Of a stretch of DNA of 64,000 bases, positions 28,385 through 43,924 are shown in pieces (the stretch's first letter is position 1; every line of letters starts with the position of its first letter). The DNA lies in IMG/VR virus record IMGVR_UViG_3300047321_000445, positions 1 through 64,000 of that record. The stretch is one strand, 5' to 3'. The DNA comes from a virus. Position numbers and translations under genes: made by a program. A model generated the notes under the pieces. It did not search any database. It was not told the DNA's origin and was given only the letters and a program-made list of their open reading frames with translations.

Positions 28385-28411
28385 CCCCCGGCCAAGTCGA
28401 GTGGCCGGGGG
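28385..28411 (-). repeat. CTCGACT-loop hairpin
   Basis: reverse strand cccccggcca-CTCGACT-tggccggggg. Confidence 0.85.
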
Positions 28412-28428
28412 GAGTCCAGGGGGGACCG

Positions 28429-29034
28429 TCACGCGGCCAGGGCGACCGCCTCAACCGCGGCGGCGAGAGCCGCGCGCCCGGCCTCGTTCACGGTGAAGGT
28501 CAGACCCTCTCCACGGGCGACCAGGCCCCGCTTGGCGAGGGAGGCGACGGTCCGCCCGTCCGTGGTCTCGCCGCGCTCCAGCGCCGCCGCCATGGCCGGG
28601 CCGACGATCCGCTCAGCCGGGTTCTTCGCGTTGGTCCGCTTCTTGTAGATCTCCAGGCGGTGGGCCCACTCGGCCTCGGCGTTCGCACGGACCGTCTCGT
28701 CGTCGGCCTTCAGCTGGGCCATCACCTCGGCGAAGGAGGTGACGACGATCGTCATCTCGCGGACCGTGACGGCCGCCGCGTCGTCCTCGGCGGCCTCGGC
28801 GATGACCTCGGCGATGACGTCGTGAAAGTCCAGGGCCTGGACGTCCTCGGCCGGGGCCGGCTCGACGACCTCGGTCTCCAGGCGGAGCTTGCCGGTCGGG
28901 GTGTAGACCCGGTGGACCAGGCCGGTCTCGGCGGTCAGCTTCGCGGCGAGCTTGTCGGCCGCCTTGCCCTCGGTGCGGGCGTCCACCTGGACGTCGTCGG
29001 CGGTGGTGATCGTGTAGGCCGGGGTCTTCGCCAT
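28429..29034 (-). CDS. hypothetical protein (paralog of 42042..42719)
   Basis: MAKTPAYTITT...GRTVASLAKRGLV; GAGGAG RBS. Confidence 0.85.
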   Translation of the reverse strand: MAKTPAYTITTADDVQVDARTEGKAADKLAAKLTAETGLVHRVYTPTGKLRLETEVVEPAPAEDVQALDFHDVIAEVIAEAAEDDAAAVTVREMTIVVTSFAEVMAQLKADDETVRANAEAEWAHRLEIYKKRTNAKNPAERIVGPAMAAALERGETTDGRTVASLAKRGLVARGEGLTFTVNEAGRAALAAAVEAVALAA

Positions 29035-29080
29035 GGTGAGCTCCTCAGGTTGGTGGGGCCGGTCTTCCCGTGCCCCGTTC

Positions 29081-29123
29081 GCAAGACCTACTGTACATAC
29101 GTCCCGACGTGAAAACAAGTAGG
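29081..29123 (-). promoter_or_regulatory. class-B promoter/operator
   Basis: TTGTTT-tcacGTCGGGACgtatg-TACAGT (17-bp spacer). Confidence 0.75.
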
Positions 29124-29146
29124 TGGGGGAAACTCCCCGAACACGA

Positions 29147-29183
29147 CTGCGCCCCCGGCCGAGTCGAGCGGCCGGGGGCGCAG
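29147..29183 (-). repeat. CTCGACT-loop hairpin
   Basis: ctgcgcccccggccg-CTCGACT-cggccgggggcgcag. Confidence 0.85.
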
Positions 29184-29195
29184 CGGGGGCGAGGG

Positions 29196-29531
29196 TCAGG
29201 CGGTGCGCTGGGGGTCGGCGTAGAAGGCGCGGATGGCCTGCCACTGCTCCCGGGGGAGCTCGCTTGCGCGGGCGGTCCACCAGGCGCCGGGGCTGCCGGT
29301 GGGGGCGAAGCCGACGGGGAACTCCGTCAGCTCCCCGGTGTGGCTGTACGCGATCTGGGAGTGGCCGTTCGGGCTCTGCAGGGTGGGGCGCGGCACGAGG
29401 AGGCCCACGCGGCGGCGACCCTCCTGCGCGCCGCCGTGGGGCGAGCCCTCGTACAGGGCGACCCAGCGGGGCCGGCTGCCGTAGCGGATGGAGCTGTTGC
29501 GGATGCGGCGGGTGTCGGCGGGCTCGGTCAT
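29196..29531 (-). CDS. hypothetical protein
   Basis: GAGAGGA RBS; flanked by hairpins. Confidence 0.7.
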   Translation of the reverse strand: MTEPADTRRIRNSSIRYGSRPRWVALYEGSPHGGAQEGRRRVGLLVPRPTLQSPNGHSQIAYSHTGELTEFPVGFAPTGSPGAWWTARASELPREQWQAIRAFYADPQRTA

Positions 29532-29554
29532 GAGAGTCCTCTCGTGGTGCGAGT

Positions 29555-29591
29555 GCTGCGCCCCGGCCAAGTCGAGTGACCGGGGCGCAGC
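29555..29591 (-). repeat. CTCGACT-loop hairpin
   Basis: gctgcgccccggtca-CTCGACT-tggccggggcgcagc. Confidence 0.85.
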
Positions 29592-29602
29592 GGGCGTGAG
29601 GG

Positions 29603-29896
29603 TCAGGCGGTGAAGTTGACGTCGGGCCAGTAGACGATCAGGTCCTTGCCCATGGCGTCGGTCCGGACGCGGTCGGCGAGGTCCATGGCCTCCTCGTGGC
29701 GGTCCTCGTCGGCGAGGGTCAGGGCGAGGGCGGTGAGGAACGGGGCGAGGGCGCCCGGGGGGATGACGACGGCCGCGCAGGTGGCGTTGAAGCCGTGCCC
29801 GTAGGCGGGCCGGATCAGGGACTCCTCCTCGTTGATGCTGGCGCGGTCCAGGGCGTCGGTGACGTCCTGGCGGGTGAGGGAGGCGGTGAGGTACAT
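29603..29896 (-). CDS. hypothetical protein (paralog of 31365..31640)
   Basis: FL.A.AL..AD..R...RVRT...G.....WPD. Confidence 0.75.
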   Translation of the reverse strand: MYLTASLTRQDVTDALDRASINEEESLIRPAYGHGFNATCAAVVIPPGALAPFLTALALTLADEDRHEEAMDLADRVRTDAMGKDLIVYWPDVNFTA

Positions 29897-29946
29897 GCGG
29901 TGGTCCTTTCGGATCGGGCGGGGCCGGTGGTGTCCGGCCCCGCTGT

Positions 29947-29993
29947 AAGACTTAGAGTACGCCCGTCCCGACCGTTTAGCAAGTCGGGACGGG
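29947..29993 (-). promoter_or_regulatory. class-B promoter/operator, full inverted repeat
   Basis: cccGTCCCGAC-N10-GTCGGGACggg; TTGCTA...TACTCT. Confidence 0.75.
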
Positions 29994-30004
29994 AGGACAG
30001 CGGG

Positions 30005-30412
30005 TCAGGACACGCGGTGCCCGCCCTCGTACACCCAGTGGATCACCGCGTACGTCGCGTCCACCCGGCGCTCCTGGATCCGCCTGATCGCCGCGTCCCG
30101 CAGCTCCCGGGCGTACGCGTAGGACTGCGCGCCCTCCGTGTACACGATGTCCGTGAAGCGCACGCCCGTGTCGGACAGGTGGCTGTACGCCACCACGTAG
30201 CCGATGACGTCGTGCAGACCGTGCTGGCAGCCCGCGCAGCCCTCCAGCGGGGTCAGCGGCGGGATGGCCGCGCTGGTCACGTACCCGGGAGTGACGCCGG
30301 GCGCAGCGTCCTCGGGCCGCGCCAGCGCCCAGTTGGCACGGAAGGTGACCGACACCCCGTCGGCCTGGTCCGCGCCCAGGTTGAGCATGTCCGGCTTCGG
30401 CTGCTGGTCCAT
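30005..30412 (-). CDS. hypothetical protein
   Basis: GAGGA RBS, own promoter. Confidence 0.7.
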   Translation of the reverse strand: MDQQPKPDMLNLGADQADGVSVTFRANWALARPEDAAPGVTPGYVTSAAIPPLTPLEGCAGCQHGLHDVIGYVVAYSHLSDTGVRFTDIVYTEGAQSYAYARELRDAAIRRIQERRVDATYAVIHWVYEGGHRVS

Positions 30413-30465
30413 CTGGCGTCCTCTCGCTCTCGGGGCCGGTGGTTCCGGTCCCGCTTGATAGAAGA

Positions 30466-30515
30466 AGAGTACCCCCGTCCCAACCATTACGCAAGTCGGG
30501 ACGGGAGGAATGTGC
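30466..30515 (-). promoter_or_regulatory. class-B promoter/operator
   Basis: GTCCCGAC-N10-GTTGGGAC; TTGCGT...TACTCT. Confidence 0.7.
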
Positions 30516-30518
30516 AGG

Positions 30519-30842
30519 TCAGGCCACAGACAAGACCACGCCATCCCACCACGGCGCCACCACCGCGAACACGTCGCCGTTGACCAGCGCCACCGACTCG
30601 GCCGTCCGCAACGGGTCCGCCCCGTCCTGTATCGCGGCCGTCAGCAGCCCCAGCGCACCCACCCGGCTGATCGCCGCGGACTGCTCGCCCACGGACATGC
30701 GGAACGAGTCGCCAGCCGGGAGCAGCACGAGCGCGTGCTCGATCGCGGTTGCAGTGACCGGCCGGAAGCCGGCCCGACGACGTCCCGGCTTGTCACTCGG
30801 GGGGAAGTCCATCCAGCGGGGCAGGGTGATCGGTTCGGCCAT
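30519..30842 (-). CDS. hypothetical protein
   Basis: GAGGA RBS. Confidence 0.65.
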   Translation of the reverse strand: MAEPITLPRWMDFPPSDKPGRRRAGFRPVTATAIEHALVLLPAGDSFRMSVGEQSAAISRVGALGLLTAAIQDGADPLRTAESVALVNGDVFAVVAPWWDGVVLSVA

Positions 30843-30902
30843 GGCCGTCGTCCTCTCTGGGGGTCGACTGGGGGCCGGCCGATCCGGCCCCCAGGGAATA
30901 CG

Positions 30903-31190
30903 TCAGGCGGCGTCCGGAACGGTCCGCAGCGCGCTCATGGCGGCGTCCGTGACGTCCATCGTCTGGCCCCAGGTCGCCTCGACGTCCAGGAACTCGCTGC
31001 CGCCGAAGCCGTCGCGGCCGACGATGCGGGCCTTGACCGGGTCGCTGCCGCTCGCTGCGGGGACCAGGACCGTCCAGGTGTAGGAGCCGTAGGTGACCTC
31101 GGCGGTCGCGCCGAGGTTCGTGCGCTTCCACGAGCCGCGTGCGGCTGCGATGGAGAAGACCAGCTCGGCGGTCGCGGGCGTGATGTCCAT
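30903..31190 (-). CDS. hypothetical protein
   Basis: GGAAGGA RBS. Confidence 0.75.
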   Translation of the reverse strand: MDITPATAELVFSIAAARGSWKRTNLGATAEVTYGSYTWTVLVPAASGSDPVKARIVGRDGFGGSEFLDVEATWGQTMDVTDAAMSALRTVPDAA

Positions 31191-31240
31191 GGGGTTCCTT
31201 CCGGCTGGGGAGGGGCGGTTGTTCCGGTCCCTTCAACACG

Positions 31241-31278
31241 CCTAAGAGTACAGGGGTCCCGACGTGAAAACAAGTAGG
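31241..31278 (-). promoter_or_regulatory. class-B promoter/operator (leftward of divergent pair)
   Basis: TTGTTT-tcacGTCGGGACccctg-TACTCT. Confidence 0.75.
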
Positions 31279-31283
31279 GATGA

Positions 31284-31317
31284 GACTGGATTTACCGTCG
31301 GGACACGTGTACTATAG
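31284..31317 (+). promoter_or_regulatory. class-B promoter/operator (rightward of divergent pair)
   Basis: TGGATT-taccGTCGGGACacgtg-TACTAT. Confidence 0.7.
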
Positions 31318-31364
31318 GGATCACCGGGGCGGGAACGACCCGCCCCACCAGCGAAAGGACGACA

Positions 31365-31640
31365 GTGCTCGAACTCTCCCGCAAGGACTTCACCGAGGCC
31401 TGCGAGCGGGCCCAGGTCTGGGGCTCCGTCACCGTCGACCCCCACCAGGGGCGCGGCGCCACCGGCCCCGGCCTGACTCTCCCGGTCGCCAAGGTGAACG
31501 ACTTCCTCGCCGCCATGGCCCTGATCATGGCTGACGGGGGTCGCAGCTCCGACGCGGTGCACCTCGTCGCCCGGGTCCGTACCGAGCCCCAGGGGCGCGG
31601 CGTGATGGCCTTCTGGCCGGACGCGGTCCTGGTCGACTGA
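31365..31640 (+). CDS. hypothetical protein (paralog of 29603..29896)
   Basis: AAAGGA RBS. Confidence 0.75.
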   Translation: MLELSRKDFTEACERAQVWGSVTVDPHQGRGATGPGLTLPVAKVNDFLAAMALIMADGGRSSDAVHLVARVRTEPQGRGVMAFWPDAVLVD

Positions 31641-31645
31641 TGAGC

Positions 31646-31678
31646 CTGCCCCCGGTCGCTCGACTCGACCGGGGGCAG
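31646..31678 (+). repeat. CTCGACT-loop hairpin
   Basis: ctgcccccggtcg-CTCGACT-cgaccgggggcag. Confidence 0.85.
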
Positions 31679-31686
31679 TGTCGTAG

Positions 31687-31732
31687 TCCAGACTTGTTTT
31701 CACGTCCGGACACGTGTACTGTCTGTCTTGTG
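31687..31732 (+). promoter_or_regulatory. class-B promoter/operator
   Basis: TTGTTT-tcacGTCCGGACacgtg-TACTGT. Confidence 0.7.
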
Positions 31733-31768
31733 AGGCCGGAACAGACCGGCCCCCACGGAAGGAGCCCC

Positions 31769-32332
31769 ATGGACACCCTCCCCGCCTTCACCCCGCTGCC
31801 CGTCTGGACCCCCCAGCTCCGCATGACCGCCCTCGGCTTCACGGCCGAACAGCACGCCATCGTCGACTCCGAGACCGCCAACCGCCGCATCGCCATGGTC
31901 ACCGAGCTCCGCGACCGCGCCGAGACCGCCGAGCGCGACGGCAGCCCGACGGCCGGCATGCTGCGCACCATGCTGGAGCGCGCCGTCGCCTCCGCCCAGC
32001 GCGCACAGACCCGCTGCACCAACAGCGGGGCGCTGCGCACCGACTGCACCACCTGCGACCACAGCCGTCAGCTGGAGCTGCTCGCCCAGGCCGGCGCCTG
32101 GAAGGAGGGGGACTACATCACCTGGCCCGGCGTCGAGCCGGACTGCTACCTCCTCACAGGCGTCAACCGCTTCTACATCACGTACGAGGCCCGCGACGGC
32201 TACCGCGCGACCGTCGACGACACGATCGGCATGTCCCTCGCCGACAAGATCAAGGACTGGCAGCCCGCCACGCCCGAGCAGATCGCCCGCTTCGAGCGCC
32301 TCTACCAGCCCGCCCCCTCCAACTGGGACTGA
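31769..32332 (+). CDS. hypothetical protein
   Basis: AAGGAG RBS. Confidence 0.75.
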   Translation: MDTLPAFTPLPVWTPQLRMTALGFTAEQHAIVDSETANRRIAMVTELRDRAETAERDGSPTAGMLRTMLERAVASAQRAQTRCTNSGALRTDCTTCDHSRQLELLAQAGAWKEGDYITWPGVEPDCYLLTGVNRFYITYEARDGYRATVDDTIGMSLADKIKDWQPATPEQIARFERLYQPAPSNWD

Positions 32333-32339
32333 CCCGCCC

Positions 32340-32372
32340 CTGCGCCCGGCTACTCGACTGAGCCGGGCGCAG
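32340..32372 (+). repeat. CTCGACT-loop hairpin
   Basis: ctgcgcccggcta-CTCGACT-gagccgggcgcag. Confidence 0.85.
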
Positions 32373-32439
32373 CCGCTCCACCCGCCCATCCCCGAGGACC
32401 GGACCGGCCGGCCCCGACCCGCTGAGGGAGGAACCACCA

Positions 32440-32847
32440 ATGATCACCACCGCTGTCACCGACACGGCCGCCGCCCAGACCATCACGCTGCGCACCATCA
32501 CCGGCGACGAGCTGTTCACCGCCACCCGCATGACGGCCGAGGGGCTGCGCGCCTGGCGTTGGGTGCTGCACGGCCTGGAGACCGAGCACGTGCTGTGCAG
32601 CAAGGTGAGCGGGTGGCACCCCCGCGGCTACGTCGTCGCCGACCAGGACGGCCGCCACGTCGGCGTCGTCATCGAAGGCGGCGGGCGCGTCCACGCCGAG
32701 TGGTACGACCCCAGCCGCGAGGACTACTTCTACGCCGGGGCCGGCTCGCGCCTCGCGCACGGTGTCAACGCCGTCCGTGGTCAGCAGGTCTGGGCGCAGC
32801 GTCACCCGTGGAACCCCGCCCCCGTGGCGCGCACCCTCGCCGCATAG
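32440..32847 (+). CDS. hypothetical protein
   Basis: GGAGGA RBS. Confidence 0.75.
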   Translation: MITTAVTDTAAAQTITLRTITGDELFTATRMTAEGLRAWRWVLHGLETEHVLCSKVSGWHPRGYVVADQDGRHVGVVIEGGGRVHAEWYDPSREDYFYAGAGSRLAHGVNAVRGQQVWAQRHPWNPAPVARTLAA

Positions 32848-32852
32848 ATTCT

Positions 32853-32891
32853 CCGTCCCGACTTGTCATCATGTCGGGACGGGAGTAATGT
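32853..32891 (+). promoter_or_regulatory. class-B promoter/operator, full inverted repeat
   Basis: GTCCCGAC-ttgtcatcat-GTCGGGAC; TTGTCA-N17-TAATGT. Confidence 0.75.
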
Positions 32892-32897
32892 CAGTGC

Positions 32898-32933
32898 TGC
32901 GGCGGCGACCACTCGACTTGGCCGCCCGCCGCA
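32898..32933 (+). repeat. CTCGACT-loop hairpin in a 5' leader
   Basis: tgcggcggcgacca-CTCGACT-tggccgcccgccgca directly after the -10 element. Confidence 0.75.
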
Positions 32934-32962
32934 CCACCCACCCGAGATACGGAGACACTCCC

Positions 32963-34384
32963 TTGACCGAGACCACCACCACCCCGACGGCCACCGACGA
33001 GCCCGAGACCCCCGAGTGCCGCCAGCACGGCCCCATGGTGCTGCGCACCAACATCCAGGCCCCCGCCACGGCCACCTGGTACTGCCCTGACGAGGTCTGC
33101 ACCAACACGGTGCTGCACCCGGCGAAGGACACCCCGCGCAAGGGCGAGATCGCCATCGTCCACACCCGCGCCGACGGCACCCTCCTGGAGGGCTCCCGCA
33201 AGGGCGACGGCGTATGGGAGATCGTCCGCGAGCACGGCTTCCGGTCCTCCCGCAACATCGGCCTGTACATCCAGCAGTCCCGCGACAAGGCCGCCAAGCG
33301 CTGGTACATAGACCGTGCCGCCGAGGCCCTGCGCGCGGCCGGCTGGACCGTCGTCATCGACATCGACGAGGACACCCGGCGCAGCTTCGCCGAGGCCGAG
33401 GCGGACCGCGTGGAGCGCGCAGGGAACCGCGCCGACCGGTTCGACGGGTACGCCGACAACGCCGCCTCGCGCTCCGACGCCGCCTATGCCGGGGTCAAGC
33501 GGATCGCCGACGGGATACCGATGGGCCAGCCGATCCTGGTCGGCCACCACAGCGAGGCCGGGGCGCGCCGGGACGTCGCGCGTATGGACGCCGGGATGCG
33601 CCGCAGCATCGACGAGGGCGACAAGGCCGCGCACTGGGCCAGCCGCGCCAAGGCCGCAGGCTCGTACGAGGAGTTCCGGAAGGCTCCGGGGCGCACGCTG
33701 CGCCGCATCGCCAAGCTGGAGGCCGACCTGCGCCGTGTCGAGAAGTGGCTGCGCGGCGAGAGCGCGGGCGGCTTCACCCGGGACCTCACGCCCGCCACGG
33801 TCGCCGAGTTGAACCGGCGCAAGGAGGAGCTGGAGGAAGAGATCGGGTTCTGGCGGCACGTCATTGCCAAGGCCGAGGAAGGCGGCTTCAAGGTCTGGGG
33901 CAAGGCCGACTTCAAGCGCGGCGACTTCGTCCTGTACGGCGGCACCTGGTACGAGGTGCTGCGCGTCAACGCCAAGTCCGTGTCGATCCCGCACATCCAC
34001 AACGGCACCGGCCGCAGGGTCGTGCGCAAGGGCGACGGCCACGTGGCGGACTGGACCTGGTTGGCCCCGTACGACGACGTGCGCGGCCGCAGGACGGCCG
34101 AGGAGCAGGCGGCTGTGGAATCGCCCGCCGAACCGGTCGCCGAGGCCGCTGTGGAGGACGAGAGGCCCGCGCGCTTCGCCGTGGCGATCGAGACCGACGA
34201 GCGGGAGTGGATGCGGTTCCACGAGCGGGACCGCGCGGTCGCCTGCGCGGCGGGCTACGGGCTCGGTGAGGAGTACGTCAAGGACACCCACGAGCCGGCT
34301 GCCGAGGCCGCTGAGGGCGCGGAGAAGCCCGCCGCCGCGGTGCCCGTGATGCACGAGGACCGGTTCCTGCCGCTGGACCGCTGA
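32963..34384 (+). CDS. DUF3560 domain-containing protein
   Basis: GIPMGQPILVGHHSE signature; TTG start after GGAG. Confidence 0.85.
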   Translation: MTETTTTPTATDEPETPECRQHGPMVLRTNIQAPATATWYCPDEVCTNTVLHPAKDTPRKGEIAIVHTRADGTLLEGSRKGDGVWEIVREHGFRSSRNIGLYIQQSRDKAAKRWYIDRAAEALRAAGWTVVIDIDEDTRRSFAEAEADRVERAGNRADRFDGYADNAASRSDAAYAGVKRIADGIPMGQPILVGHHSEAGARRDVARMDAGMRRSIDEGDKAAHWASRAKAAGSYEEFRKAPGRTLRRIAKLEADLRRVEKWLRGESAGGFTRDLTPATVAELNRRKEELEEEIGFWRHVIAKAEEGGFKVWGKADFKRGDFVLYGGTWYEVLRVNAKSVSIPHIHNGTGRRVVRKGDGHVADWTWLAPYDDVRGRRTAEEQAAVESPAEPVAEAAVEDERPARFAVAIETDEREWMRFHERDRAVACAAGYGLGEEYVKDTHEPAAEAAEGAEKPAAAVPVMHEDRFLPLDR

Positions 34385-34397
34385 GCCCCTGGAGTTG

Positions 34398-34434
34398 CTG
34401 CGCCCCTGACCCGGTCGAGTGGTCGGGGGCGCAG
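34398..34434 (-). repeat. inverted variant hairpin (loop CTCGACC on - strand)
   Basis: ctgcgcccctgacc-cggtcgagt-ggtcgggggcgcag. Confidence 0.65.
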
Positions 34435-34482
34435 TCGCGTCCGGGGTCGGCTGCGCCCTGACCAGCAAGGTTTCCAGGAAGG

Positions 34483-34531
34483 GACTTGCTTTCACGTCGG
34501 GACGGGTGTACCTTAAGTCTTGTGAACGGGG
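34483..34531 (+). promoter_or_regulatory. class-B promoter/operator
   Basis: TTGCTT-tcacGTCGGGACgggtg-TACCTT-aagtcttgtgaacgggg. Confidence 0.75.
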
Positions 34532-34556
34532 CACACCGCCCCCGAAGGGAGAGACG

Positions 34557-35396: not shown

Positions 35397-35405
35397 CCGG
35401 CAGCT

Positions 35406-35442: not shown

Positions 35443-35479
35443 CCGGGCTCGGCCCCGGTCTGCGCGGGAGTCTTGGCGT

Positions 35480-37157: not shown

Positions 37158-37170
37158 CACCCCGCCCCTT

Positions 37171-37207
37171 GGCTGCGCCCGGCCACTCGACTTGGCCGGG
37201 CGTGGCC
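37171..37207 (+). repeat. CTCGACT-loop hairpin
   Basis: ggctgcgcccggcca-CTCGACT-tggccgggcgtggcc. Confidence 0.85.
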
Positions 37208-37239
37208 GCCCCCGCCACAAGCCCCAGGAGTAGAGCCCC

Positions 37240-37554: not shown

Positions 37555-37567
37555 CACCCCCCTCCCT

Positions 37568-37604
37568 GGTTGCGCCCGGCCACTCGACTTGGCCGGGCGC
37601 AGCC
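37568..37604 (+). repeat. CTCGACT-loop hairpin
   Basis: ggttgcgcccggcca-CTCGACT-tggccgggcgcagcc. Confidence 0.85.
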
Positions 37605-37651
37605 GCCCCGCTCATCCATCCCCGCTCCATCACCCTCCCGAGGAGAGATCC

Positions 37652-37942
37652 ATGGACACCACCGCTGCATCCACGGCCGGCGCCGAGGACACCCGCCGCG
37701 ACTGGGCCATCGTCGCCATCACCTCCCAGTCCATCCACTGCGCCGACAGGCAGGCCGCCGAGGAGGTGGCTGAAGACCGCCCGCACCTCACGGTCGTCTC
37801 GCGGCCGCTCGGGGGCGAGTGGGAGCCGCTGTCGCAGCCGGTCGTCCCGGTCGACCTGGGGCCGCTGAGCGACGAGCAGCTGGCGGCGCTCCAGTTCGAG
37901 GCCGCGCGGCTGTTGGCGCGCCGTCAGGGCCGCGCGCTGTAG
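37652..37942 (+). CDS. hypothetical protein
   Basis: GAGGAG RBS. Confidence 0.7.
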   Translation: MDTTAASTAGAEDTRRDWAIVAITSQSIHCADRQAAEEVAEDRPHLTVVSRPLGGEWEPLSQPVVPVDLGPLSDEQLAALQFEAARLLARRQGRAL

Positions 37943-38038
37943 TTCCTGCTGAGTCCTGCTGCGCCCCGGTCGACATGGCCGGGGCGCAGTCGCGTTCGGG
38001 GGTGGGCTGTGCCCTGACCAGCGGGTTTTCACCCCTAG

Positions 38039-38086
38039 GCTTGCATGCACGTCGGGACACGTGTACTCTAGGTCTTGTGAACGGGG
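38039..38086 (+). promoter_or_regulatory. class-B promoter/operator
   Basis: TTGCAT-gcacGTCGGGACacgtg-TACTCT. Confidence 0.75.
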
Positions 38087-38115
38087 CAACGCCCCACCCG
38101 ACCGAGGAGGACCCC

Positions 38116-38376
38116 ATGGACACCATCGCCGCCGACAACCTGACCGGCACCTACTACCCCGCCGCCCCCGGCGCCCGCACCTGGCGCGAGGCCCGCCCCC
38201 TCTACATCGGCCGCGACCGCGTCTCGGCCGAGATCACGGCCGACCGCCAGGGCTACGTCTTCGTCGGCCTGCACATGGTCTTCGCCGGGGCCATCCCCGC
38301 CGACGTCCAGGGCAGCGCCGACGTGACCCGCTGGGCCCGCGAGGTGGCCCTGTCCACGCTCACGCTCGCCGCCTGA
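38116..38376 (+). CDS. hypothetical protein
   Basis: GAGGAGG RBS. Confidence 0.75.
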   Translation: MDTIAADNLTGTYYPAAPGARTWREARPLYIGRDRVSAEITADRQGYVFVGLHMVFAGAIPADVQGSADVTRWAREVALSTLTLAA

Positions 38377-38390
38377 CCCACCATCCGCCC

Positions 38391-38427
38391 GCCGCGCCCC
38401 GGCCGCTCGACTAGCCCGGGGCGCGGC
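38391..38427 (+). repeat. CTCGACT-loop hairpin
   Basis: gccgcgccccggccg-CTCGACT-agcccggggcgcggc. Confidence 0.8.
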
Positions 38428-38448
38428 ACCCACCCCGAGAGGAACCCC

Positions 38449-38970
38449 ATGGCCATCGCAGACCTGAAGCTGCTGCCCGCCGTCGCCTTCGACCGCCCCA
38501 CCCAGGACGGCATGAAGCCGCTCCCCGAGGGCTACGACCCGAGCCGGCTGACGATCGTCCGCGCCGACCAGGTGCGCACTGGGGACCTGGTCGTCGGCAG
38601 CGTCGACCAGCCCCTGAAGCGCGGCAGCCTGCTCCGCTGGGCGACGTACCTGGCGGCCGCGTACGTCGCGCAGCCGGGCCCGTACGAGGCCGACTGCGCG
38701 TCCTGCCGGGCCTGGACGTCCACGCCCGTGCCGGATGCCGAGTGGGTGTCCCTGGCCCCGCACGTCCCGCAGCTCGCGGACGAGCTGATCTCCATCGTCC
38801 CGGCGCCCGAGCCGGTGGAGGCCGCACCGCGGCCGTGCGTGCACACCTGCACCTGCGAGAACGGCCGCCTGCGGCAGACGACCCGCAGCTTCTACCCGGC
38901 CGCCATCTGCGGCGACTGTCACCGCCGTCCGTGCGGCGCCTGCCGTGACGCGGCCCGCTCGACCCACTGA
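38449..38970 (+). CDS. Cys-rich hypothetical protein
   Basis: GAGGA RBS; several CxxC. Confidence 0.7.
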   Translation: MAIADLKLLPAVAFDRPTQDGMKPLPEGYDPSRLTIVRADQVRTGDLVVGSVDQPLKRGSLLRWATYLAAAYVAQPGPYEADCASCRAWTSTPVPDAEWVSLAPHVPQLADELISIVPAPEPVEAAPRPCVHTCTCENGRLRQTTRSFYPAAICGDCHRRPCGACRDAARSTH

Positions 38971-38982
38971 TCCCACCTCACG

Positions 38983-39019
38983 GCTGCGCCCCGGCCACTC
39001 GACTTGGCCGGGGCGCAGC
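38983..39019 (+). repeat. CTCGACT-loop hairpin
   Basis: gctgcgccccggcca-CTCGACT-tggccggggcgcagc. Confidence 0.85.
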
Positions 39020-39039
39020 ACCCACACCGAGAGGACACC

Positions 39040-39615
39040 ATGCCCACCTTCACCTTCCCCAGCGGCGCGACCGTCGAGGCGCCCGACGGACTGCCCCTGT
39101 GTGAGCGGCCCGAGACCGTCACGGAGGACGTCGGCCGTTCCATCCTGGTCGGCCTGACCCGCAGCGACCGACCGGTCTTCTCCACCTTCTCCTGTGCCGC
39201 TTACGCCGCCCTCGGTCGCCTGTTCACCATGCGGGGGGACGTTGCCTACGACCGCCGTCGGGCCGAGCGGCTGGAGGCCCGCGGCCGGACCTGGCAGGCG
39301 GGGAACGTGCGCCGCCATGCCGACGAGCGGGAGGCGCGCAACGAACGGCTCCTGGCGCGCATGGTGGCCGACCCGGCGCCGTGCACGTGCGTGATCCCTT
39401 ACGTGCCCGCTGTCGAGCTGGCTGAAGAGGTCGGGGTTCTCAAGGCTGACGTCCTGGAGAAGATCCGCGATCGTGCCGACCGGATGAGGGCGCTCGGGGG
39501 GCGGGACGTGGAGCAGCTCGTTTTCCGCCTGGGCCCCGACGGTGAGGTGCTGGTGGCGCCGATTACGGCTCTGTCGCTGCGGATGCACTTCGCCCAGCCT
39601 GCGCACCTGCGCTGA
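39040..39615 (+). CDS. hypothetical protein
   Basis: GAGGA RBS. Confidence 0.7.
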   Translation: MPTFTFPSGATVEAPDGLPLCERPETVTEDVGRSILVGLTRSDRPVFSTFSCAAYAALGRLFTMRGDVAYDRRRAERLEARGRTWQAGNVRRHADEREARNERLLARMVADPAPCTCVIPYVPAVELAEEVGVLKADVLEKIRDRADRMRALGGRDVEQLVFRLGPDGEVLVAPITALSLRMHFAQPAHLR

Positions 39616-39636
39616 CGCCTGACCCCGGACGCAATA

Positions 39637-39675
39637 CGGCCGTCTGCTGCTTCTCGACTAAGCGGCAGACGGCCG
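39637..39675 (+). repeat. CTCGACT-loop hairpin with an unrelated stem sequence
   Basis: cggccgtctgctgctt-CTCGACT-aagcggcagacggccg. Confidence 0.85.
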
Positions 39676-39717
39676 GCCCCCACCGTAGCAAGACTGAACC
39701 CCCGGAAGGAACCGTTC

Positions 39718-40362
39718 ATGAGCACGACTACGCCCGCCAGACCGGACGTGCCCGCTCTCGCCCACGAGACCGCGCGCATCCTCGGCACTGACTGGCACGC
39801 CCAGCCGGACACGGACTGGGTCAGCGCCTGGGCGCTGCACCACCGGGACGGGCGCCGCGTCCGCCTGTACGGCCCGGAGTACGGCAACGAGGGCCGGCTG
39901 TACATGGAGGGACTGCTGCCGAACGCGCCCGAGGACGAGCGGCCGGACCGGACCGGCCTGGACTCCGGGAACATCTCCGTCGCTGCGTCCTCCCCGGCCC
40001 GCCGTGTGGCCGGGGAGATCACCCGGCGCCTGCTGCCCAAGCTGACCCCGGCGTGCGAGGAGTACCGCCGTCGGCTGGAGGAGCTGCGTACGGCGGAGCG
40101 AGCCCGCGTGGCGGCTGCCCGCAGCCTGGCGGAACTGCCGGGCCTGTCGGAGCCGCGCCGGAACTACCACGACCGGAGGGTGACGGCGTATCACCTGGCC
40201 TGGGACGGGCCGAGGCGCGGCGAGTGGCACGGGGCGAAGCCGTCCGCGCGGATCGACGTGGACGCAGACCGGGAGACGGCTGAGCCGCACGTGTGCATGG
40301 AGCTGCGGGGGCTGTCGCCCGAGCAGGCCGAGCGGGTGCTGCGGGCGCTCATCGAGCCGTAG
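39718..40362 (+). CDS. hypothetical protein
   Basis: GAAGGA RBS. Confidence 0.75.
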   Translation: MSTTTPARPDVPALAHETARILGTDWHAQPDTDWVSAWALHHRDGRRVRLYGPEYGNEGRLYMEGLLPNAPEDERPDRTGLDSGNISVAASSPARRVAGEITRRLLPKLTPACEEYRRRLEELRTAERARVAAARSLAELPGLSEPRRNYHDRRVTAYHLAWDGPRRGEWHGAKPSARIDVDADRETAEPHVCMELRGLSPEQAERVLRALIEP

Positions 40363-40422
40363 GTCTGAGCGTCGTGGGTGTGCCCCGGCCGGGTTGGTCG
40401 GGGCACACCCATATCTGCCTCA

Positions 40423-40474
40423 CGTCCCGACTTGCTTTCACGTCGGGACTCATGCATGCTTGGTCTTGCGAACG
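40423..40474 (+). promoter_or_regulatory. class-B promoter/operator, full inverted repeat
   Basis: GTCCCGAC-ttgctttcac-GTCGGGAC; TTGCTT-N17-CATGCT. Confidence 0.75.
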
Positions 40475-40501
40475 ACACCAGCGACCAGGGATCGGAGATC
40501 C

Positions 40502-41206
40502 ATGCCTCACGCACGCGCTCAGCTCATCGGCGGCCGCGACCGCCAGTGCGACGCCACCGCCGTCTACACGAAGCACAACAAGGTCCGCGCCTACGTCCTC
40601 CTGGACGGCATCGGCGACACCACCGACGTCCACCTCTGGACCCTGCTCACCGCCCGCCGCCTGGCCTACCAGGCGGCAAACGACGCCGACGCCGAGGCCG
40701 GACTGCGCACAGTCCACGCCCGGATCGCCGAGGAGCGCGCCCCGCTCGGCTTGGCCGCAGACTTCGAGCCGTCCGCGGTTGCCGTCGTCGCGGTCGCCAT
40801 CCCCGGCGAGCTGCTCCAGGTCGCATGGTGCGGCGACGCCCGCGCCTACGTCCTGCCCGAAGGCGGCGAGTTGCGGCGGCTGACGACCGACCACAACAAG
40901 CGCCAGTGGCTGATCGACCAGGACCTCCCGTTCGGCCCGTACGACCGTAACCAGGTCCTCTCGTACCTCGGCGACACCGCCGAGGACGCGTCGCAGCGGA
41001 TCGGGACGGCACTCGGTCCCGCCTCGGGCCGCCTGCTGCTGGCCTCGGACGGCGCGTACGAGCCCCTGGAGGACTCGTGCATGGACCTGTCGGCCTACCT
41101 CGTGGGAAGCCCGCGTAAGGCCGCCAGGGACTTCACGCAGGCCGCCATCGACCGCGGCTCGGCCCGCCCGGACAACGCCACGGCCCTGGTCGTCGACTTC
41201 GGCTGA
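40502..41206 (+). CDS. PP2C/PPM-family Ser/Thr phosphatase
   Basis: QCDA, LLDGIG, WCGDARAY, LTTDH, LLLASDG, DNAT. Confidence 0.85.
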   Translation: MPHARAQLIGGRDRQCDATAVYTKHNKVRAYVLLDGIGDTTDVHLWTLLTARRLAYQAANDADAEAGLRTVHARIAEERAPLGLAADFEPSAVAVVAVAIPGELLQVAWCGDARAYVLPEGGELRRLTTDHNKRQWLIDQDLPFGPYDRNQVLSYLGDTAEDASQRIGTALGPASGRLLLASDGAYEPLEDSCMDLSAYLVGSPRKAARDFTQAAIDRGSARPDNATALVVDFG

Positions 41207-41220
41207 TCCCCGCTCACCGT

Positions 41221-41251
41221 CCGCCCCGGCTACTCGACTTGGCCGGGGCGG
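41221..41251 (+). repeat. CTCGACT-loop hairpin
   Basis: ccgccccggcta-CTCGACT-tggccggggcgg. Confidence 0.85.
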
Positions 41252-41289
41252 GCCGCCTCTTCCCACCACACCCACTTGAACGGAGAACC

Positions 41290-41859
41290 ATGGACGCTCA
41301 CGAGTCCCGCAACTTCCTGGCCGGCCTGGCCAAGAGACTCCCCGCCGAGGTCACCGTCGAAGACCGCGAAGGGCCGGTCACCCGCGAGGCACTGCTGCGG
41401 GTCATCCGTAACGACCTGCTGCCGGTCCTGGTCCGCAACCCGCTGCACCGCCACCCGCGCAGGCAGCTCCCCGCCCTCTACGGCCCGGTCGCGGCCGGCC
41501 TGCGTCAGGCCCTGGTCGCCTACAGCTCGGGCCGTGGAGAGGACTTCCTGCCCCGGCTGGAGCAGGCTCTCGAGGCCGCGGCGGCCGCCCGCAAGGCGGA
41601 CGACTACGACCCCGCCACGAAGTACGTGACCGCGACGTCCTGGGCAGTCTCGTGCACCCTGGGCGCGCACATCGACGGCGCGATCCTCAACGTCCACGAC
41701 CTGGACCACGAGGCGGTCAACGGCCACGGCGGCTGGGGCGTGGTCGTCTGGCACCCGGTCCACGACAAGCGGCAGTTCCCCAGCCAGGACGCAGCTCGCG
41801 CCTACGCCCTGCGGATGGGGCTGCTGCAGCGCTTCGTGCCGAGCCGCGTGCTGGTCTGA
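41290..41859 (+). CDS. hypothetical protein
   Basis: GGAG RBS. Confidence 0.7.
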   Translation: MDAHESRNFLAGLAKRLPAEVTVEDREGPVTREALLRVIRNDLLPVLVRNPLHRHPRRQLPALYGPVAAGLRQALVAYSSGRGEDFLPRLEQALEAAAAARKADDYDPATKYVTATSWAVSCTLGAHIDGAILNVHDLDHEAVNGHGGWGVVVWHPVHDKRQFPSQDAARAYALRMGLLQRFVPSRVLV

Positions 41860-41868
41860 CGGTCCCTC

Positions 41869-41905
41869 GCTGCGCCCCGGTCACTCGACTTGACCGGGGC
41901 GCAGC
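41869..41905 (+). repeat. CTCGACT-loop hairpin
   Basis: gctgcgccccggtca-CTCGACT-tgaccggggcgcagc. Confidence 0.85.
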
Positions 41906-41951
41906 CGTGTTCGGGGACGGGCAGGCAGCACTCTCCATCTTTCTTGGGGAA

Positions 41952-42002
41952 CCGACTTGCTTTCACGTCGGGACACGTGCATACTAGGTCTTGCGAACGG
42001 GG
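41952..42002 (+). promoter_or_regulatory. class-B promoter/operator
   Basis: TTGCTT-tcacGTCGGGACacgtg-CATACT. Confidence 0.75.
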
Positions 42003-42041
42003 AACGGAAAGTCCGGCCCCACCAACACCGAGGAGCACACC

Positions 42042-42719
42042 ATGGCTAAGACCCCCGCCTACACGATCACCACCACCGACGACACCAAGGTGGACGAGCG
42101 GACCGAGGGCAAGGCGGCCGACAAGCTGGCCCAGAAGCTCACCGCCGAGACCGGCCTGGTCCACCGGGTCTACACCCCGACCGGCAAGCTCCGCCTGGAG
42201 ACCGAGGTCGTCGAGCCGGCCCCGGCCGATGAGGTCCCCTCGGTCGACATCAGCGAGGTCCCCGAGGCCGCGCCGGTCGAGGCCGAGGCCGAGGCGGAGG
42301 TCGAGGAGGTCGTGGAGGCCGAGGTCGAGGCCGAGGAGGTCGAGGAGGCCCCCGAGACGGCCCCGGTCGAGGTCCGCGAGATGAACATCGTGGTGCCCAG
42401 GGACTTCGTCTCCTACGCGACGCTGATGGACCTGCTCAAGAACGACGACGACGCGGTCCGCGAGGACGCCGCGTCCGAGTGGGCCTTCCGCCTGGAGGTC
42501 TACAAGCGGCGCACGAACGCCAAGGACGCCTCGAAGCGGATCGTCGGCCCGGCCATGGCGGCGGCGCTGGAGCGCGGCGAGACCACCGACGGGCGGACCA
42601 TCGCCTCCCTGGCCAAGCGGGGCCTGGTGGAGCGCGGGGAGGGTCTGGCCTTCACGGTGAACGAGGCCGGGCGCGCGGCCCTGGCCGCTGCGGTCGCCGC
42701 GGTGACCGACACCGAGTGA
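42042..42719 (+). CDS. hypothetical protein (paralog of 28429..29034) with acidic linker
   Basis: MAKTPAYTITT...; EAEVEE repeats. Confidence 0.85.
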   Translation: MAKTPAYTITTTDDTKVDERTEGKAADKLAQKLTAETGLVHRVYTPTGKLRLETEVVEPAPADEVPSVDISEVPEAAPVEAEAEAEVEEVVEAEVEAEEVEEAPETAPVEVREMNIVVPRDFVSYATLMDLLKNDDDAVREDAASEWAFRLEVYKRRTNAKDASKRIVGPAMAAALERGETTDGRTIASLAKRGLVERGEGLAFTVNEAGRAALAAAVAAVTDTE

Positions 42720-42730
42720 TCGTCCCTGAG

Positions 42731-42767
42731 GTTGCGCCCCGGCCACTCGACTTGGCCGGGGCGCGAC
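42731..42767 (+). repeat. CTCGACT-loop hairpin
   Basis: gttgcgccccggcca-CTCGACT-tggccggggcgcgac. Confidence 0.85.
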
Positions 42768-42778
42768 TGCTTCCCTGG

Positions 42779-42822
42779 CCGACTTGCTTTCACGTCGGGA
42801 CGTGTGTACTCTAAGTCTTGTG
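42779..42822 (+). promoter_or_regulatory. class-B promoter/operator
   Basis: TTGCTT-tcacGTCGGGACgtgtg-TACTCT. Confidence 0.75.
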
Positions 42823-42864
42823 AGGGACCGGAACGACCGGCCCACCAACCACCAGGAGGACGCC

Positions 42865-43242
42865 ATGACCGCCACCGCCACCGAGACCCTGGCCCCCGGC
42901 ACCGTCGTGCGCGCCCCCCTCTACCGCAACGGCCAGCCCGTCGGCCGACCCCGCCGCGGCATCGTCCTGCGCACCTTCGCCAGCGACGGCAACCCCAAGT
43001 CCGGCTACCTCGTGTGGTTCTACACGCTCGGGGCGGCCCACAAGGACGGCCAGGGCGACACCAGCACGGTCGGCCTGGTCTTCCCGCGCGAGGCCGAGCG
43101 CGTCGGCACCGTCGCCGACATGGGCGACCGGGTGCTGGCCAACGCCGGTAAGGGCCTGCGCGACTGGCCCACCGGCCGCCAGGCCTGGAACGAGATCTAC
43201 CGCGTCTACGTCGCCCGGAAGCGCGCGGCCGCGCAGGCCTGA
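42865..43242 (+). CDS. hypothetical protein
   Basis: AGGAGG RBS. Confidence 0.75.
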   Translation: MTATATETLAPGTVVRAPLYRNGQPVGRPRRGIVLRTFASDGNPKSGYLVWFYTLGAAHKDGQGDTSTVGLVFPREAERVGTVADMGDRVLANAGKGLRDWPTGRQAWNEIYRVYVARKRAAAQA

Positions 43243-43253
43243 CGGCCCCCCTC

Positions 43254-43290
43254 GCCGGGCCCCGGCCACTCGACTTGGCCGGGGCCCGGC
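43254..43290 (+). repeat. CTCGACT-loop hairpin
   Basis: gccgggccccggcca-CTCGACT-tggccggggcccggc. Confidence 0.85.
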
Positions 43291-43324
43291 ACCCCACCAC
43301 CCTCCGGAAGGAACTGAACCGACC

Positions 43325-43846
43325 ATGAACGTCACCGTCTCGCTCCCGTGCGAGTCCACCGCCGAGGCGAACCTGATCCGCAACGCCGTCAACCGCTACC
43401 GGCACGTCCTCAAGGACCAGGGCGTCGACCCGCGCGACTTCGCCCCGCCCAGCGACGAGGGCGCCGGGTTCGGCTGGGACGCCGTGCAGCGCACCGCAGG
43501 CGACATGAGCGCGGGGAGCGTGACCCACATGTCCCCGCGCATGGCGCGCGCCATCCACCTCGCGTTGCAGGACAAGGCGGCCTGGACCCGCGACCCGGAC
43601 GCGCAGCGCATCGCGGCCGTCCTGATGTCCCGGATCAACCGCCTGATCATCCCGCCGAAGGACGGATGGGTCTGCCCCTACATGCCGTTCGGCCACGCCT
43701 GGACGGGCGACACCGTGTGCCGGTTGTGCGGCGAGACCCGCACCGTCTCCGAGGTCATCACGTCGCTGCTCGCCGGACTGCCCGGCTTCAGCGAGGAGCG
43801 TGCAGCCGCCCTGGTGGCCCGGCACGTCGCCGAGGCCACGGCCTGA
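43325..43846 (+). CDS. hypothetical protein
   Basis: GAAGGA RBS. Confidence 0.7.
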   Translation: MNVTVSLPCESTAEANLIRNAVNRYRHVLKDQGVDPRDFAPPSDEGAGFGWDAVQRTAGDMSAGSVTHMSPRMARAIHLALQDKAAWTRDPDAQRIAAVLMSRINRLIIPPKDGWVCPYMPFGHAWTGDTVCRLCGETRTVSEVITSLLAGLPGFSEERAAALVARHVAEATA

Positions 43847-43867
43847 CGCGCCCCGTCGGGGCATGAG

Positions 43868-43911
43868 GAAGCCCGCTGCACCGGCCGGGAGTGGCCTGTG
43901 CAGCGGGCTTC
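43868..43911. terminator. bidirectional terminator between convergent genes
   Basis: gaagcccgctgca...tgcagcgggcttc. Confidence 0.65.
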
Positions 43912-43924
43912 TTCGTGTCTCCAG

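Follow-up and report, generated by a model that had tools for sequence, protein, structure and literature searches.

In the temperate Streptomyces phage phiC31, repeated promoters and conserved palindromes known as CIRs occupy the early region of the genome, and the CIRs are reportedly bound by the phage repressor; direct inspection of the phiC31 sequence (NC_001978) showed that one early promoter occurs approximately 10 times and that at least 11 CIR palindromes are located between genes. One repressor site repeated at many promoters is found in the phage-plasmid P1 (C1 operators) and in the plasmids RK2 and R388 (KorA/KorB, ArdK/StbA); when such an element enters a cell that lacks the repressor, its multi-operator regulon is expressed in a burst. 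In T7, conserved RNase III hairpins placed between early genes are associated with incomplete termination, and define and stabilise 3′ ends. Among related T4-type phages, promoter-early stem-loop (PeSL) motifs bound insertions, deletions and replacements (PMC2839356, PMC4122927).

The locus described here is an array of 25 small genes (GC3-based gene calling) at 28.4–43.9 kb of a phage-plasmid of approximately 97 kb, within a window covering positions 1–64,000 of its record. As in phiC31, the host is a Streptomyces and the life style temperate, a conserved promoter recurs ahead of one small early gene after another (here a predicted promoter and presumably early genes), and another conserved palindromic element recurs between genes, just past the stop codons. 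However, the sequences are unrelated; the operator dyad is embedded in the promoter, the fixed palindrome of phiC31 gives way after the genes to a long hairpin whose stem varies and whose non-palindromic loop is invariant, and the array is divergent, sits on a 97-kb phage-plasmid and holds mostly orphan genes. Unlike the PeSL motifs of T4, promoter and hairpin are separate elements (14 promoters versus 19 hairpins, adjoining at approximately eight junctions), the promoter contains an operator, the hairpins have a conserved loop and lack U-tracts, and the element is temperate, with an actinobacterial host. By comparison with the operators of P1, RK2 and R388, which are spread over a backbone of known functions, these operators are packed into a single 15-kb array of orphan genes, and a second repeated element of RNA type is added. 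The hairpins resemble those of T7 in being conserved and in lying between successive genes inside polycistronic units; their stems are perfect 14–16-bp GC helices closed by a conserved 7-nt loop, whereas the T7 substrates are bulged. They too may stop transcription only in part and set and protect 3′ ends.

The element is a tailed Streptomyces phage-plasmid of 97 kb and not a plain TraB plasmid. It encodes a terminase large subunit (TerL), a portal-MuF protein and a GH25 lysin; two proteins of approximately 1,350 and 1,330 aa at 80.7–88.8 kb, which match no family, are taken as tail proteins from their size and position. Plasmid-type genes include ParA, an FtsK-like TraB, DUF2637 and an Xer-type recombinase, and a GntR regulator is also present. 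Its TerL is 68–69% identical to those of Streptomyces cavernae and of two phage records of approximately 98 kb (L072 and L076), all three of which carry equivalent arrays; a fourth relative, L053, is a linear plasmid with conjugal-transfer genes.

The array is organised in two divergent arms that separate at position ~31280, a left arm of six genes on the minus strand (28429–31190) and a right arm of 19 genes on the plus strand (31365–43846). The first-pass annotation had described some 25 short genes, nearly all domain-free, transcribed outward from this point and built from promoter-gene-hairpin cassettes, and this anatomy is confirmed: the genes fall into 14 units that each open with the same promoter-like block, 18 of the 25 are followed by a hairpin, and Pfam recognises only three (g10, g21 and g24). 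Intergenic gaps have a median of 100 nt within the array versus 32 nt elsewhere, and GC3 is 0.946 versus 0.897 (p = 1e-8). In the left arm, g03 (29603–29896, 97 aa) belongs to phrog_14658, of unknown function, and is 36% identical to its paralog g07. The other five are orphans: g01 (28429–29034, 201 aa; a paralog of g23 with 64% amino acid identity, truncated in S. cavernae), g02 (29196–29531, 111 aa; no Pfam or PHROG match, missing from the S. cavernae array), g04 (30005–30412, 135 aa; S. cavernae ortholog at 71%), g05 (30519–30842, 107 aa; missing from S. cavernae) and g06 (30903–31190, 95 aa; cassette at another position in S. cavernae).

Five right-arm genes have family assignments, namely g10 (32963–34384, 473 aa; YdbA-type DUF3560, PF12083, E = 4.7e-37), g11 (34557–35396, 279 aa; phage family phrog_2433, with conserved His/Cys and no match to a solved fold), g14 (36639–37157, 172 aa; phrog_5855, with weak OB/SSB-like matches only), g21 (40502–41206, 234 aa; PP2C-type Ser/Thr phosphatase, PF00481, E = 1.4e-7, with homologs in S. 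cavernae and L053) and g24 (42865–43242, 125 aa; DUF6409, PF19947, E = 4e-12). The remaining 14 are orphans: g07 (31365–31640, 91 aa; the paralog of g03), g08 (31769–32332, 187 aa; only its C-terminal half retained in S. cavernae), g09 (32440–32847, 135 aa) and g12 (35552–35893, 113 aa), each with a distant homolog in L076, g13 (35974–36555, 193 aa), g15 (37240–37554, 104 aa), g16 (37652–37942, 96 aa; in S. cavernae it follows the g24 ortholog), g17 (38116–38376, 86 aa), g18 (38449–38970, 173 aa; homologs in L053, L054 and L072), g19 (39040–39615, 191 aa; homologs in S. cavernae and two in L072), g20 (39718–40362, 214 aa; S. cavernae ortholog at 74%), g22 (41290–41859, 189 aa; homologs in S. 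cavernae, L054 and L072), g23 (42042–42719, 225 aa; the paralog of g01) and g25 (43325–43846, 173 aa), which ends the arm. Searches of Pfam, PHROG and PADLOC matched none of the 25 genes to families known for anti-defence, defence or takeover.

The promoter-like block is approximately 60 nt long and reads TTGYTT-17-TACTCT around a dyad, GTCCCGAC-N10/11-GTCGGGAC, with the −35 box lying between the half-sites. All 14 array copies are in the sense orientation, 69–102 nt upstream of a start codon, and a leader hairpin and then GGAGGA come after each. On the minus strand, they precede g01 (29060–29134), g03 (29924–29998) and g04 (30436–30510), both with a full dyad, and g06-g05 (31215–31289), the last back to back with the plus-strand copy before g07 (31271–31345). 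The other plus-strand copies precede g08-g09 (31678–31752), g10 (32847–32921, with a full dyad and a short CTCGACT hairpin in the leader), g11 (34470–34544), g12-g13 (35469–35543), g14-g16 (36546–36620), g17-g20 (38025–38099), g21-g22 (40416–40490, full dyad), g23 (41941–42015) and g24-g25 (42768–42842). A fifteenth, degenerate copy lies beyond the array (48701–48775, plus strand), before a 91-aa gene (48793–49068), and has an S. cavernae equivalent at 321971; 14 of the 15 copies thus fall within 16% of the replicon. In a gap-free alignment of 31 copies from the element and S. cavernae, ACTTG, TTcACGTcGGGAC and TGTAct.T are conserved. Only three of the six positions of the −35 box agree with the consensus, and a generic promoter scan called none of these sites. 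The block is a predicted host-type promoter with a dyad operator, whose activity, timing and repression are proposed from its sequence. A conserved two-HTH protein (47564–48406) is a candidate repressor by position only; no repressor was identified, and this protein has no homolog in L054, though the L054 operator is similar.

The hairpins, GC-rich and with a CTCGACT loop, number 15 canonical and four variant copies in the array, and only three in the remaining 82 kb of the replicon (among them 17856–17898 and 23160–23202, both plus strand). They lie 3–20 nt past stop codons, and after 18 of the 25 genes the loop lies 19–38 nt downstream of the stop codon. CTCGACT loops follow g01 (28377–28419), g02 (29144–29186) and g03 (29552–29594) on the minus strand and, on the plus strand, g07 (31641–31683), g08 (32335–32377), g11 (35403–35445), g12 (35905–35947), g14 (37168–37210), g15 (37565–37607), g17 (38391–38427, stem imperfect), g18 (38980–39022), g19 (39635–39677, stem wholly different), g21 (41215–41257), g22 (41866–41908), g23 (42728–42770) and g24 (43251–43293). 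The copy after g16 (37958–37992, plus strand) is a variant with the loop TCGACAT, and that after g10 (34398–34434, minus strand) is inverted, here and in S. cavernae, with GGTCGAG as the mRNA-strand loop. Across an alignment of 36 copies drawn from three elements, pairing holds in 93.5% of cells, compensatory changes occur in 13 of 14 pairs, and the covariation score is 0.69 versus 0.17 for shuffles and ~0.1 with partners slid; CTCGAC is identical in all 36, and orientation matches transcription in 34. Folding energies range from −26 to −39 kcal/mol, with 0–4 T in the next 14 nt and no U-tract, and 10 hairpins sit inside units, upstream of genes without a promoter of their own. Genuine T-tract terminators are found at unit ends, such as the one closing the right arm (43865–43915; −46 kcal/mol, followed by TTCTTCG), which is convergent with the GntR gene. 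The family has no match in Rfam.

Relatives differ by whole cassettes, genes having been gained, lost or moved in blocks the size of a cassette. Of the 25 genes, 15 have counterparts in S. cavernae and the other 10 have been replaced; the cassettes of g06 and g16 have moved. This bears out the gain, loss and shuffling of genes that had been proposed. Homology to S. cavernae ends at gene ends, at the stop codon; for g16, it runs from near the start codon to the stop codon and not into the hairpin loop. In L072, L076 and L053, the same hairpin is kept, the operator differs (GTGTAGCTACAC twice), and shared genes are reordered. The first-pass annotation had also called for breakpoints at the repeats: cassette presence and order do vary, but no repeat junctions were seen, and recombination at the repeats is suggested by the block boundaries.

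The array is probably the variable early/accessory region of a temperate, repressor-controlled Streptomyces phage-plasmid, in which repeated signals would serve both as expression sockets and as homology for recombination. The first-pass annotation, whose interpretation as a whole is partly supported, had instead proposed the establishment and anti-defence island of a conjugative plasmid. On this view, promoters derepressed zygotically after TraB-mediated dsDNA transfer would drive products that protect and establish the incoming plasmid. As such an island the array is possible but unlikely. Like the anti-defence islands of conjugative-plasmid leading regions, of which a Streptomyces conjugative element is one example, it is a dense run of co-oriented small genes that includes DUF3560/YdbA, a family present in leading-region tables (PMC11541004). 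DUF3560 is a plasmid rather than a phage gene, with more than 5000 plasmid matches, 3716 of them conjugative, versus one in 50,697 phage records, so the earlier assignment of this family to plasmid establishment regions is upheld. The element has the TraB-like translocase and GntR regulator, the plasmid L053 combines conjugal-transfer genes with the same hairpin and shared genes, and in the Streptomyces griseorubiginosus plasmid L052 an analogous array, which includes ArdC-like and methylase genes, extends up to a MobF relaxase. However, with the TraB of the element as query, no counterpart was found in S. cavernae, L072, L076 or L053, all of which have the array signals, whereas TerL is common to three of these four (S. 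cavernae, L072 and L076); the frame of a TraB plasmid is not supported, and the array is best read as not specific to TraB conjugation. Furthermore, a MobF query gave no relaxase in the element, no oriT was found there, Pfam detected none of the known anti-restriction, SSB or PsiB families in the array, the carrier is a tailed phage-plasmid, and the promoters are of the ordinary double-stranded kind, not Frpo-type ssDNA promoters. A role in plasmid establishment may nevertheless hold, since DUF3560 is plasmid-type and the plasmids L052 and L053 carry analogous arrays.

It is doubtful that the array is a moron-like block for lysogenic conversion or defence, in which each gene, with its own promoter and stop signal, would be expressed in the carrier state, not early, and would benefit the host or exclude other phages. 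Self-contained promoter-gene-hairpin units, the very high GC3 and a place between functional modules fit this description, but the dyad operator overlaps every −35 box, which argues for coordinated repression, PADLOC defence families gave no convincing match in the array, and in phiC31 the analogous region is an early one. That the hairpins are DNA recombination sites (attC-like or REP/RAYT-like) with a dedicated recombinase, or functionless selfish repeats, is highly improbable: the turnover is cassette-sized, the repeats form hairpins with a conserved core and the replicon has a tyrosine recombinase, but this enzyme is Xer-like and 27 kb distant, most cassettes have their own promoter, unlike integron cassettes, the g16 homology does not end inside the loop, orientation tracks transcription, and the stems lack attC-type bulges.

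As the variable early region of a temperate phage-plasmid, the array could work as follows. A single element-encoded repressor would keep all 14 units off in the carrier state, and the units would fire together upon induction or when infection or transfer brings the DNA into a repressor-free cell. The hairpins would act at the RNA level, stopping transcription incompletely, marking sites for processing or protecting 3′ ends, and their invariant loop suggests a sequence-specific factor that recognises it. Being repeated and near-identical, promoters and hairpins may also provide homology for recombination. The products could serve host takeover, counter-defence or establishment; an anti-defence role is conjectural, the only recognisable families being DUF3560, PP2C and DUF6409. 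The genes may be drawn from a pool common to Streptomyces phages and plasmids. The most novel part of the array is the conserved-loop hairpin family; related elements retain the repeated signals while swapping genes, a variant of the design found in phiC31 and T4.

The region of the window from 28.4 to 43.9 kb holds 25 genes coding for proteins of 86-473 aa, arranged as a minus-strand arm of six (g01-g06) and a plus-strand arm of nineteen (g07-g25) that diverge from ~31,280; genes were called by GC3 in this window of ~70% GC and their start codons refined by Shine-Dalgarno sites. Positions of promoters and hairpins divide the region into 14 transcription units of 1-4 genes each. The promoter-gene-hairpin cassettes described in the first-pass annotation are accurate, with 14 promoter copies and a hairpin after 18 of the 25 genes; as an observation the cassette array is confirmed, and the interpretation attached to it, an establishment and anti-defence island of a TraB plasmid, is partly supported. 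The array differs from the rest of the replicon in its median intergenic gap (100 nt vs 32 nt) and in the GC3 of its genes (0.946 vs 0.897 for the other replicon genes, p=1e-8), the latter being compatible with a tuning for strong host expression and no proof of function. Two paralog pairs lie on opposite arms as inverted duplications, namely g01/g23, promoter included (28422-29124 vs 41951-42726), and g03/g07 (29603-29896 vs 31365-31640); both copies of each pair are retained in the related contig of S. cavernae.

The first of the two repeated signals is a promoter block of ~60 nt, of which the array has 14 copies; a further one lies at 48.7 kb. All copies are sense-oriented and located 69-102 nt ahead of a start codon. 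Over 31 ungapped copies from the window and the S. cavernae contig, the consensus is g.cccgACTTG.tTTcACGTcGGGAC...TGTAct.T..GtcTtg, and the block reads TTGYTT, 17 nt, TACTCT, in the manner of a sigma-70 promoter. The motif GTCGGGAC sits inside the spacer and its inverted partner GTCCCGAC is found just upstream in the best copies, so that the dyad GTCCCGAC-N10/11-GTCGGGAC, the dyad form of a predicted operator, brackets the -35 box. Downstream of every copy comes a small leader hairpin, the stem of which covaries between copies, followed by GGAGGA. The fifteenth copy (48701-48775) is degenerate and isolated and stands ahead of a 91-aa gene whose composition is unusual (GC of 0.34 at second codon positions), the two together spanning 48701-49068. 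It lies, both in the window and in S. cavernae, just downstream of the gene for a conserved two-HTH/wHTH protein of 280 aa (47564-48406), which is, on its position only, a possible candidate for the repressor of the regulon. Small conserved genes at 15-17 kb are further candidates for a regulator. Scans with the exact promoter motif returned the S. cavernae contig as the sole true relative among genomes, only single chance matches in IMG/VR and one chance match in metagenomes.

The second signal is a GC-rich hairpin of 14-16 bp with a CTCGACT loop, the loop being placed 19-38 nt past the stop codon. In 36 copies gathered from three elements, 93.5% of the cells are paired, compensatory changes occur in 13 of the 14 pairs and the CTCGAC of the loop is invariant (36/36); the covariation score reaches 0.69, as compared to 0.17 in shuffles and ~0.1 when the partners are slid, a pattern of RNA type. 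A scan against Rfam over 28000-44500 gave no significant match, the best E-value being 0.28, far below the gathering score. The predicted folding energies of -26 to -39 kcal/mol speak of a strong stem and would invite the reading of a canonical intrinsic terminator; this reading was rejected for want of a U-tract, the 14 nt that follow holding 0-4 T. Terminators of the ordinary T-tract type do occur at 43865-43915, where one closes the right arm, and at 48655-48695. Moreover, ten of the hairpins are located within transcription units ahead of genes lacking a promoter of their own, and the hairpins can thus not be complete terminators. With 19 hairpins vs 14 promoters, the two signals form separate families that are adjacent at ~8 junctions. 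A single hairpin, the one after the DUF3560 gene (34398-34434; L065:12595-12637 in the S. cavernae contig), is inverted relative to transcription, and this orientation is kept in S. cavernae. Readings of the hairpins as integron sites, REP elements or TraB clt sites were rejected, the first two on tested features.

Both signals are conserved in the S. cavernae contig, which is syntenic with window 15-48 kb at 70-80% identity over most aligned blocks and whose array displays the same divergent layout, with the promoter in ~16 copies and the CTCGACY hairpin in 15. Between these signals the genes turn over cassette by cassette. Homologs of 15 of the 25 array genes are present in S. cavernae, ten are absent (g02, g05, g09, g11, g12, g13, g15, g17, g18 and g25), and ~14 genes of the S. 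cavernae array have no counterpart in the window. The backbone order is kept, with two cassettes relocated: the promoter-g06 cassette is innermost in the left arm of the window vs second from the outer end in S. cavernae, and g16 follows g15 in the one vs the ortholog of g24 in the other. For both g06 and g16, the homologous stretch starts with the promoter or close to the start codon and reaches as far as the stop codon. The proposal that cassettes are gained, lost and shuffled is thereby borne out, with 15 genes shared, ten replaced and two moved in blocks ending at promoter or start codon and at stop codon. Some genes differ also in extent, the g01 homolog of S. cavernae being truncated and the counterpart of g08 consisting of the C-terminal half only. 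No close relative of the array turned up among plasmids and phages by megablast, the matches being confined to fragments of DUF3560 and GntR.

Scanning with the hairpin motif retrieved two more virus records, L072 (99.3 kb), with 11 CTCGACC hairpins, and L076 (97.8 kb, bounded by terminal repeats and rated complete), with 5-6. In these two records and in L053, a linear plasmid of Streptomyces sp. NBC_00708, the promoter is of another type, TTGCGT with two GTGTAGCTACAC operators, unlike that of the window. All three have array genes in common with the window, in another order; in L072 the series runs g22, a gene otherwise found only in S. cavernae, g18, DUF3560 and two copies of g19. The large terminase subunits (TerL) of S. 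cavernae, L072 and L076 are 68-69% identical to that of the window replicon. On the strength of shared TerL and shared arrays, the array belongs to a lineage of ~97-99-kb phages in which a single type of hairpin goes with at least two types of operator. This pairing of the same hairpin with two different operators suggests that signals for immunity and expression evolve as modules.

This assignment bears on the nature of the replicon, assembled as a single contig of 97,310 bp flagged as a virus record. Downstream of the window (G000 67733-91549, L001/L002) it carries the phage genes for TerL, a portal-MuF fusion and a GH25 lysin, as well as two proteins of ~1,350 and ~1,330 aa (80.7-88.8 kb) that match no family and are, judging from size and position, probably tail proteins. 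In the window itself, the genes for ParA, a Xer-type recombinase, a C5 methylase, a GntR/UTRA regulator, DUF2637 and an FtsK-like TraB are of plasmid type. The replicon is a phage-plasmid, the bearer of TraB and ParA being also a tailed phage, and is an element of the pZL12 kind. The TraB-plasmid frame of the first-pass annotation is not supported, given the TerL, portal-MuF and lysin genes and the failure of the window TraB, used as a query, to find a match in S. cavernae, L072, L076 or L053; within the lineage, TraB appears to have been added in the window replicon.

As to what the array encodes, Pfam recognizes only DUF3560 (g10), PP2C (g21) and DUF6409 (g24), while g03, g10, g11, g14, g21 and g24 fall into phage families of unknown function in PHROGs. 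DUF3560 has >5000 plasmid matches, mostly to conjugative plasmids, vs one phage record, and Samuel et al. 2024 (PMC11541004) list the YdbA/DUF3560 family in their tables of leading regions; its designation as a gene of plasmid establishment regions is thus supported. Among ArdA/B/C, SSB, PsiB, orphan methylases and DUF3560/YdbA, only the last is recognized in the array, and PADLOC reported no defence family there, a marginal Csm3 row for g20 being disregarded. The product of g11 (34557-35396) is a member of a large family, viral for the most part and counting 1396 cluster representatives, in which His160, His162, Cys208, Cys211, Cys229, Cys254, Cys257 and His272 are invariant and probably bind zinc; its fold, predicted with confidence by AlphaFold (pLDDT 94), has no homolog among solved structures. 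That of g14, also modelled with confidence, is widespread in Streptomyces and occurs in phage Kradal, with weak SSB/OB-like rows at E ~0.1. For the models of g11 and g14, Foldseek found no solved homolog (E of 0.08 or worse) and VIA-align only coiled-coil or helical-hairpin rows with Z <8; sequence searches of the PDB with g10, g11, g14 and g23 gave no match, and in the ESM Atlas g11 grouped with hypothetical clusters from viruses, while no useful lead emerged for g23. Genes other than that for DUF3560 thus yielded no clue to function; by position and analogy, the array genes may have anti-defence or takeover roles.

A cassette array of this kind calls to mind several known systems. An integron does not fit, as there is no integrase in or adjoining the array, the sole tyrosine recombinase is Xer-like (906-1907) and 14 cassettes have their own promoter. 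The leading-region islands of plasmids share DUF3560 and a general look with the array, but no relaxase is matched in the replicon, either by Pfam scans of its large ORFs or by tblastn with the MobF protein of an S. griseorubiginosus plasmid (L052), and no known anti-defence family was recognized in the array by Pfam, PHROGs or PADLOC. In evolutionary terms, the closest concept is that of the PeSLs of T4-type phages: the array likewise has a repeated, predicted sigma-70-like promoter (14 copies) in a region of small ORFans, the insertions, deletions and replacements between the window and S. cavernae are bounded by motifs, and L072 has another gene order. Unlike in PeSLs, promoter and stem-loop are here separate elements rather than one composite motif, and the promoter carries a predicted operator. 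The nearest Streptomyces precedent is the early region of phiC31, where a direct check found ~10 copies of one promoter ahead of early genes and at least 11 CIR palindromes at intergenic sites, often just past stop codons. A repeated conserved promoter and a repeated conserved intergenic element are thus common to both, whereas the motifs ACTTGYTTTCACGTCGGGAC and CTCGACT are unrelated to the GGGTTGCCGACTCCCTTAC and CCTACTCACGTGAGTAGG of phiC31.

The same design, executed with private motifs, is found in the DUF3560 neighbourhoods of other Streptomyces elements, and the architecture is recurrent rather than unique to the window. In the S. griseorubiginosus plasmid (NZ_CP107769.1 82927-113787), an array of 20 kb contains a private promoter with TGGTAATGT in 12 copies and ten hairpins with an ATGGCA loop; further repeats of 90-300 nt are also present. 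This array includes ArdC-like, N6-methylase, DndC and HNH genes, has a MobF relaxase at its end and is a candidate for the true leading region of a Streptomyces relaxase plasmid. In L054 (IMGVR_UViG_2511231200_000001), the dyad GTGCCGAC-N10-GTCGGCAC around TTG departs from that of the window by 1-2 bases per half-site, which suggests from sequence that the two repressors may be related and shifted in specificity, as in heteroimmune phages; no homolog of the 47564-48406 protein was found in L054. Two further elements, L056 and L058, have repeats of their own. The most original elements of the array are its conserved-loop hairpin family, common to two operator types, and its cassette pool, common to tailed phages and plasmids.

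Taken together with the operator dyad, the promoter block would be a promoter for the host RNA polymerase under a single dimeric repressor, keeping the units silent in the carrier state and allowing them to fire jointly on entry or induction. The hairpins would act on the transcript, be it as leaky stops, processing sites or protectors of 3' ends, with a putative factor reading the loop, and recombination between repeats would move the cassettes. A bolder reading, which we hold to be rather unlikely, is that a dedicated trans-acting factor (such as an antiterminator, processing enzyme or stabiliser) reads the CTCGACY-loop hairpin, a cis element so far undescribed, which together with swappable operators would provide Streptomyces phages and plasmids with a standard expression socket for the exchange of entry-phase genes for counter-defence or takeover; if so, the array would offer an abundant supply of new anti-defence proteins, already sorted.

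Candidate entry-phase genes for functional screening can be picked out by the promoters and hairpins, which are also potential compact regulatory parts for Streptomyces engineering. The array offers a clean and testable case of how variable genes are organized in a temperate actinophage/plasmid: ~25 genes without known function could be switched by one type of operator and are punctuated by a second conserved signal of RNA type, and both signals are retained as the genes between them change. Its gene pool is common to tailed phages and plasmids and includes the leading-region gene DUF3560, and thereby links the early regions of phages to the establishment regions of plasmids in Streptomyces.
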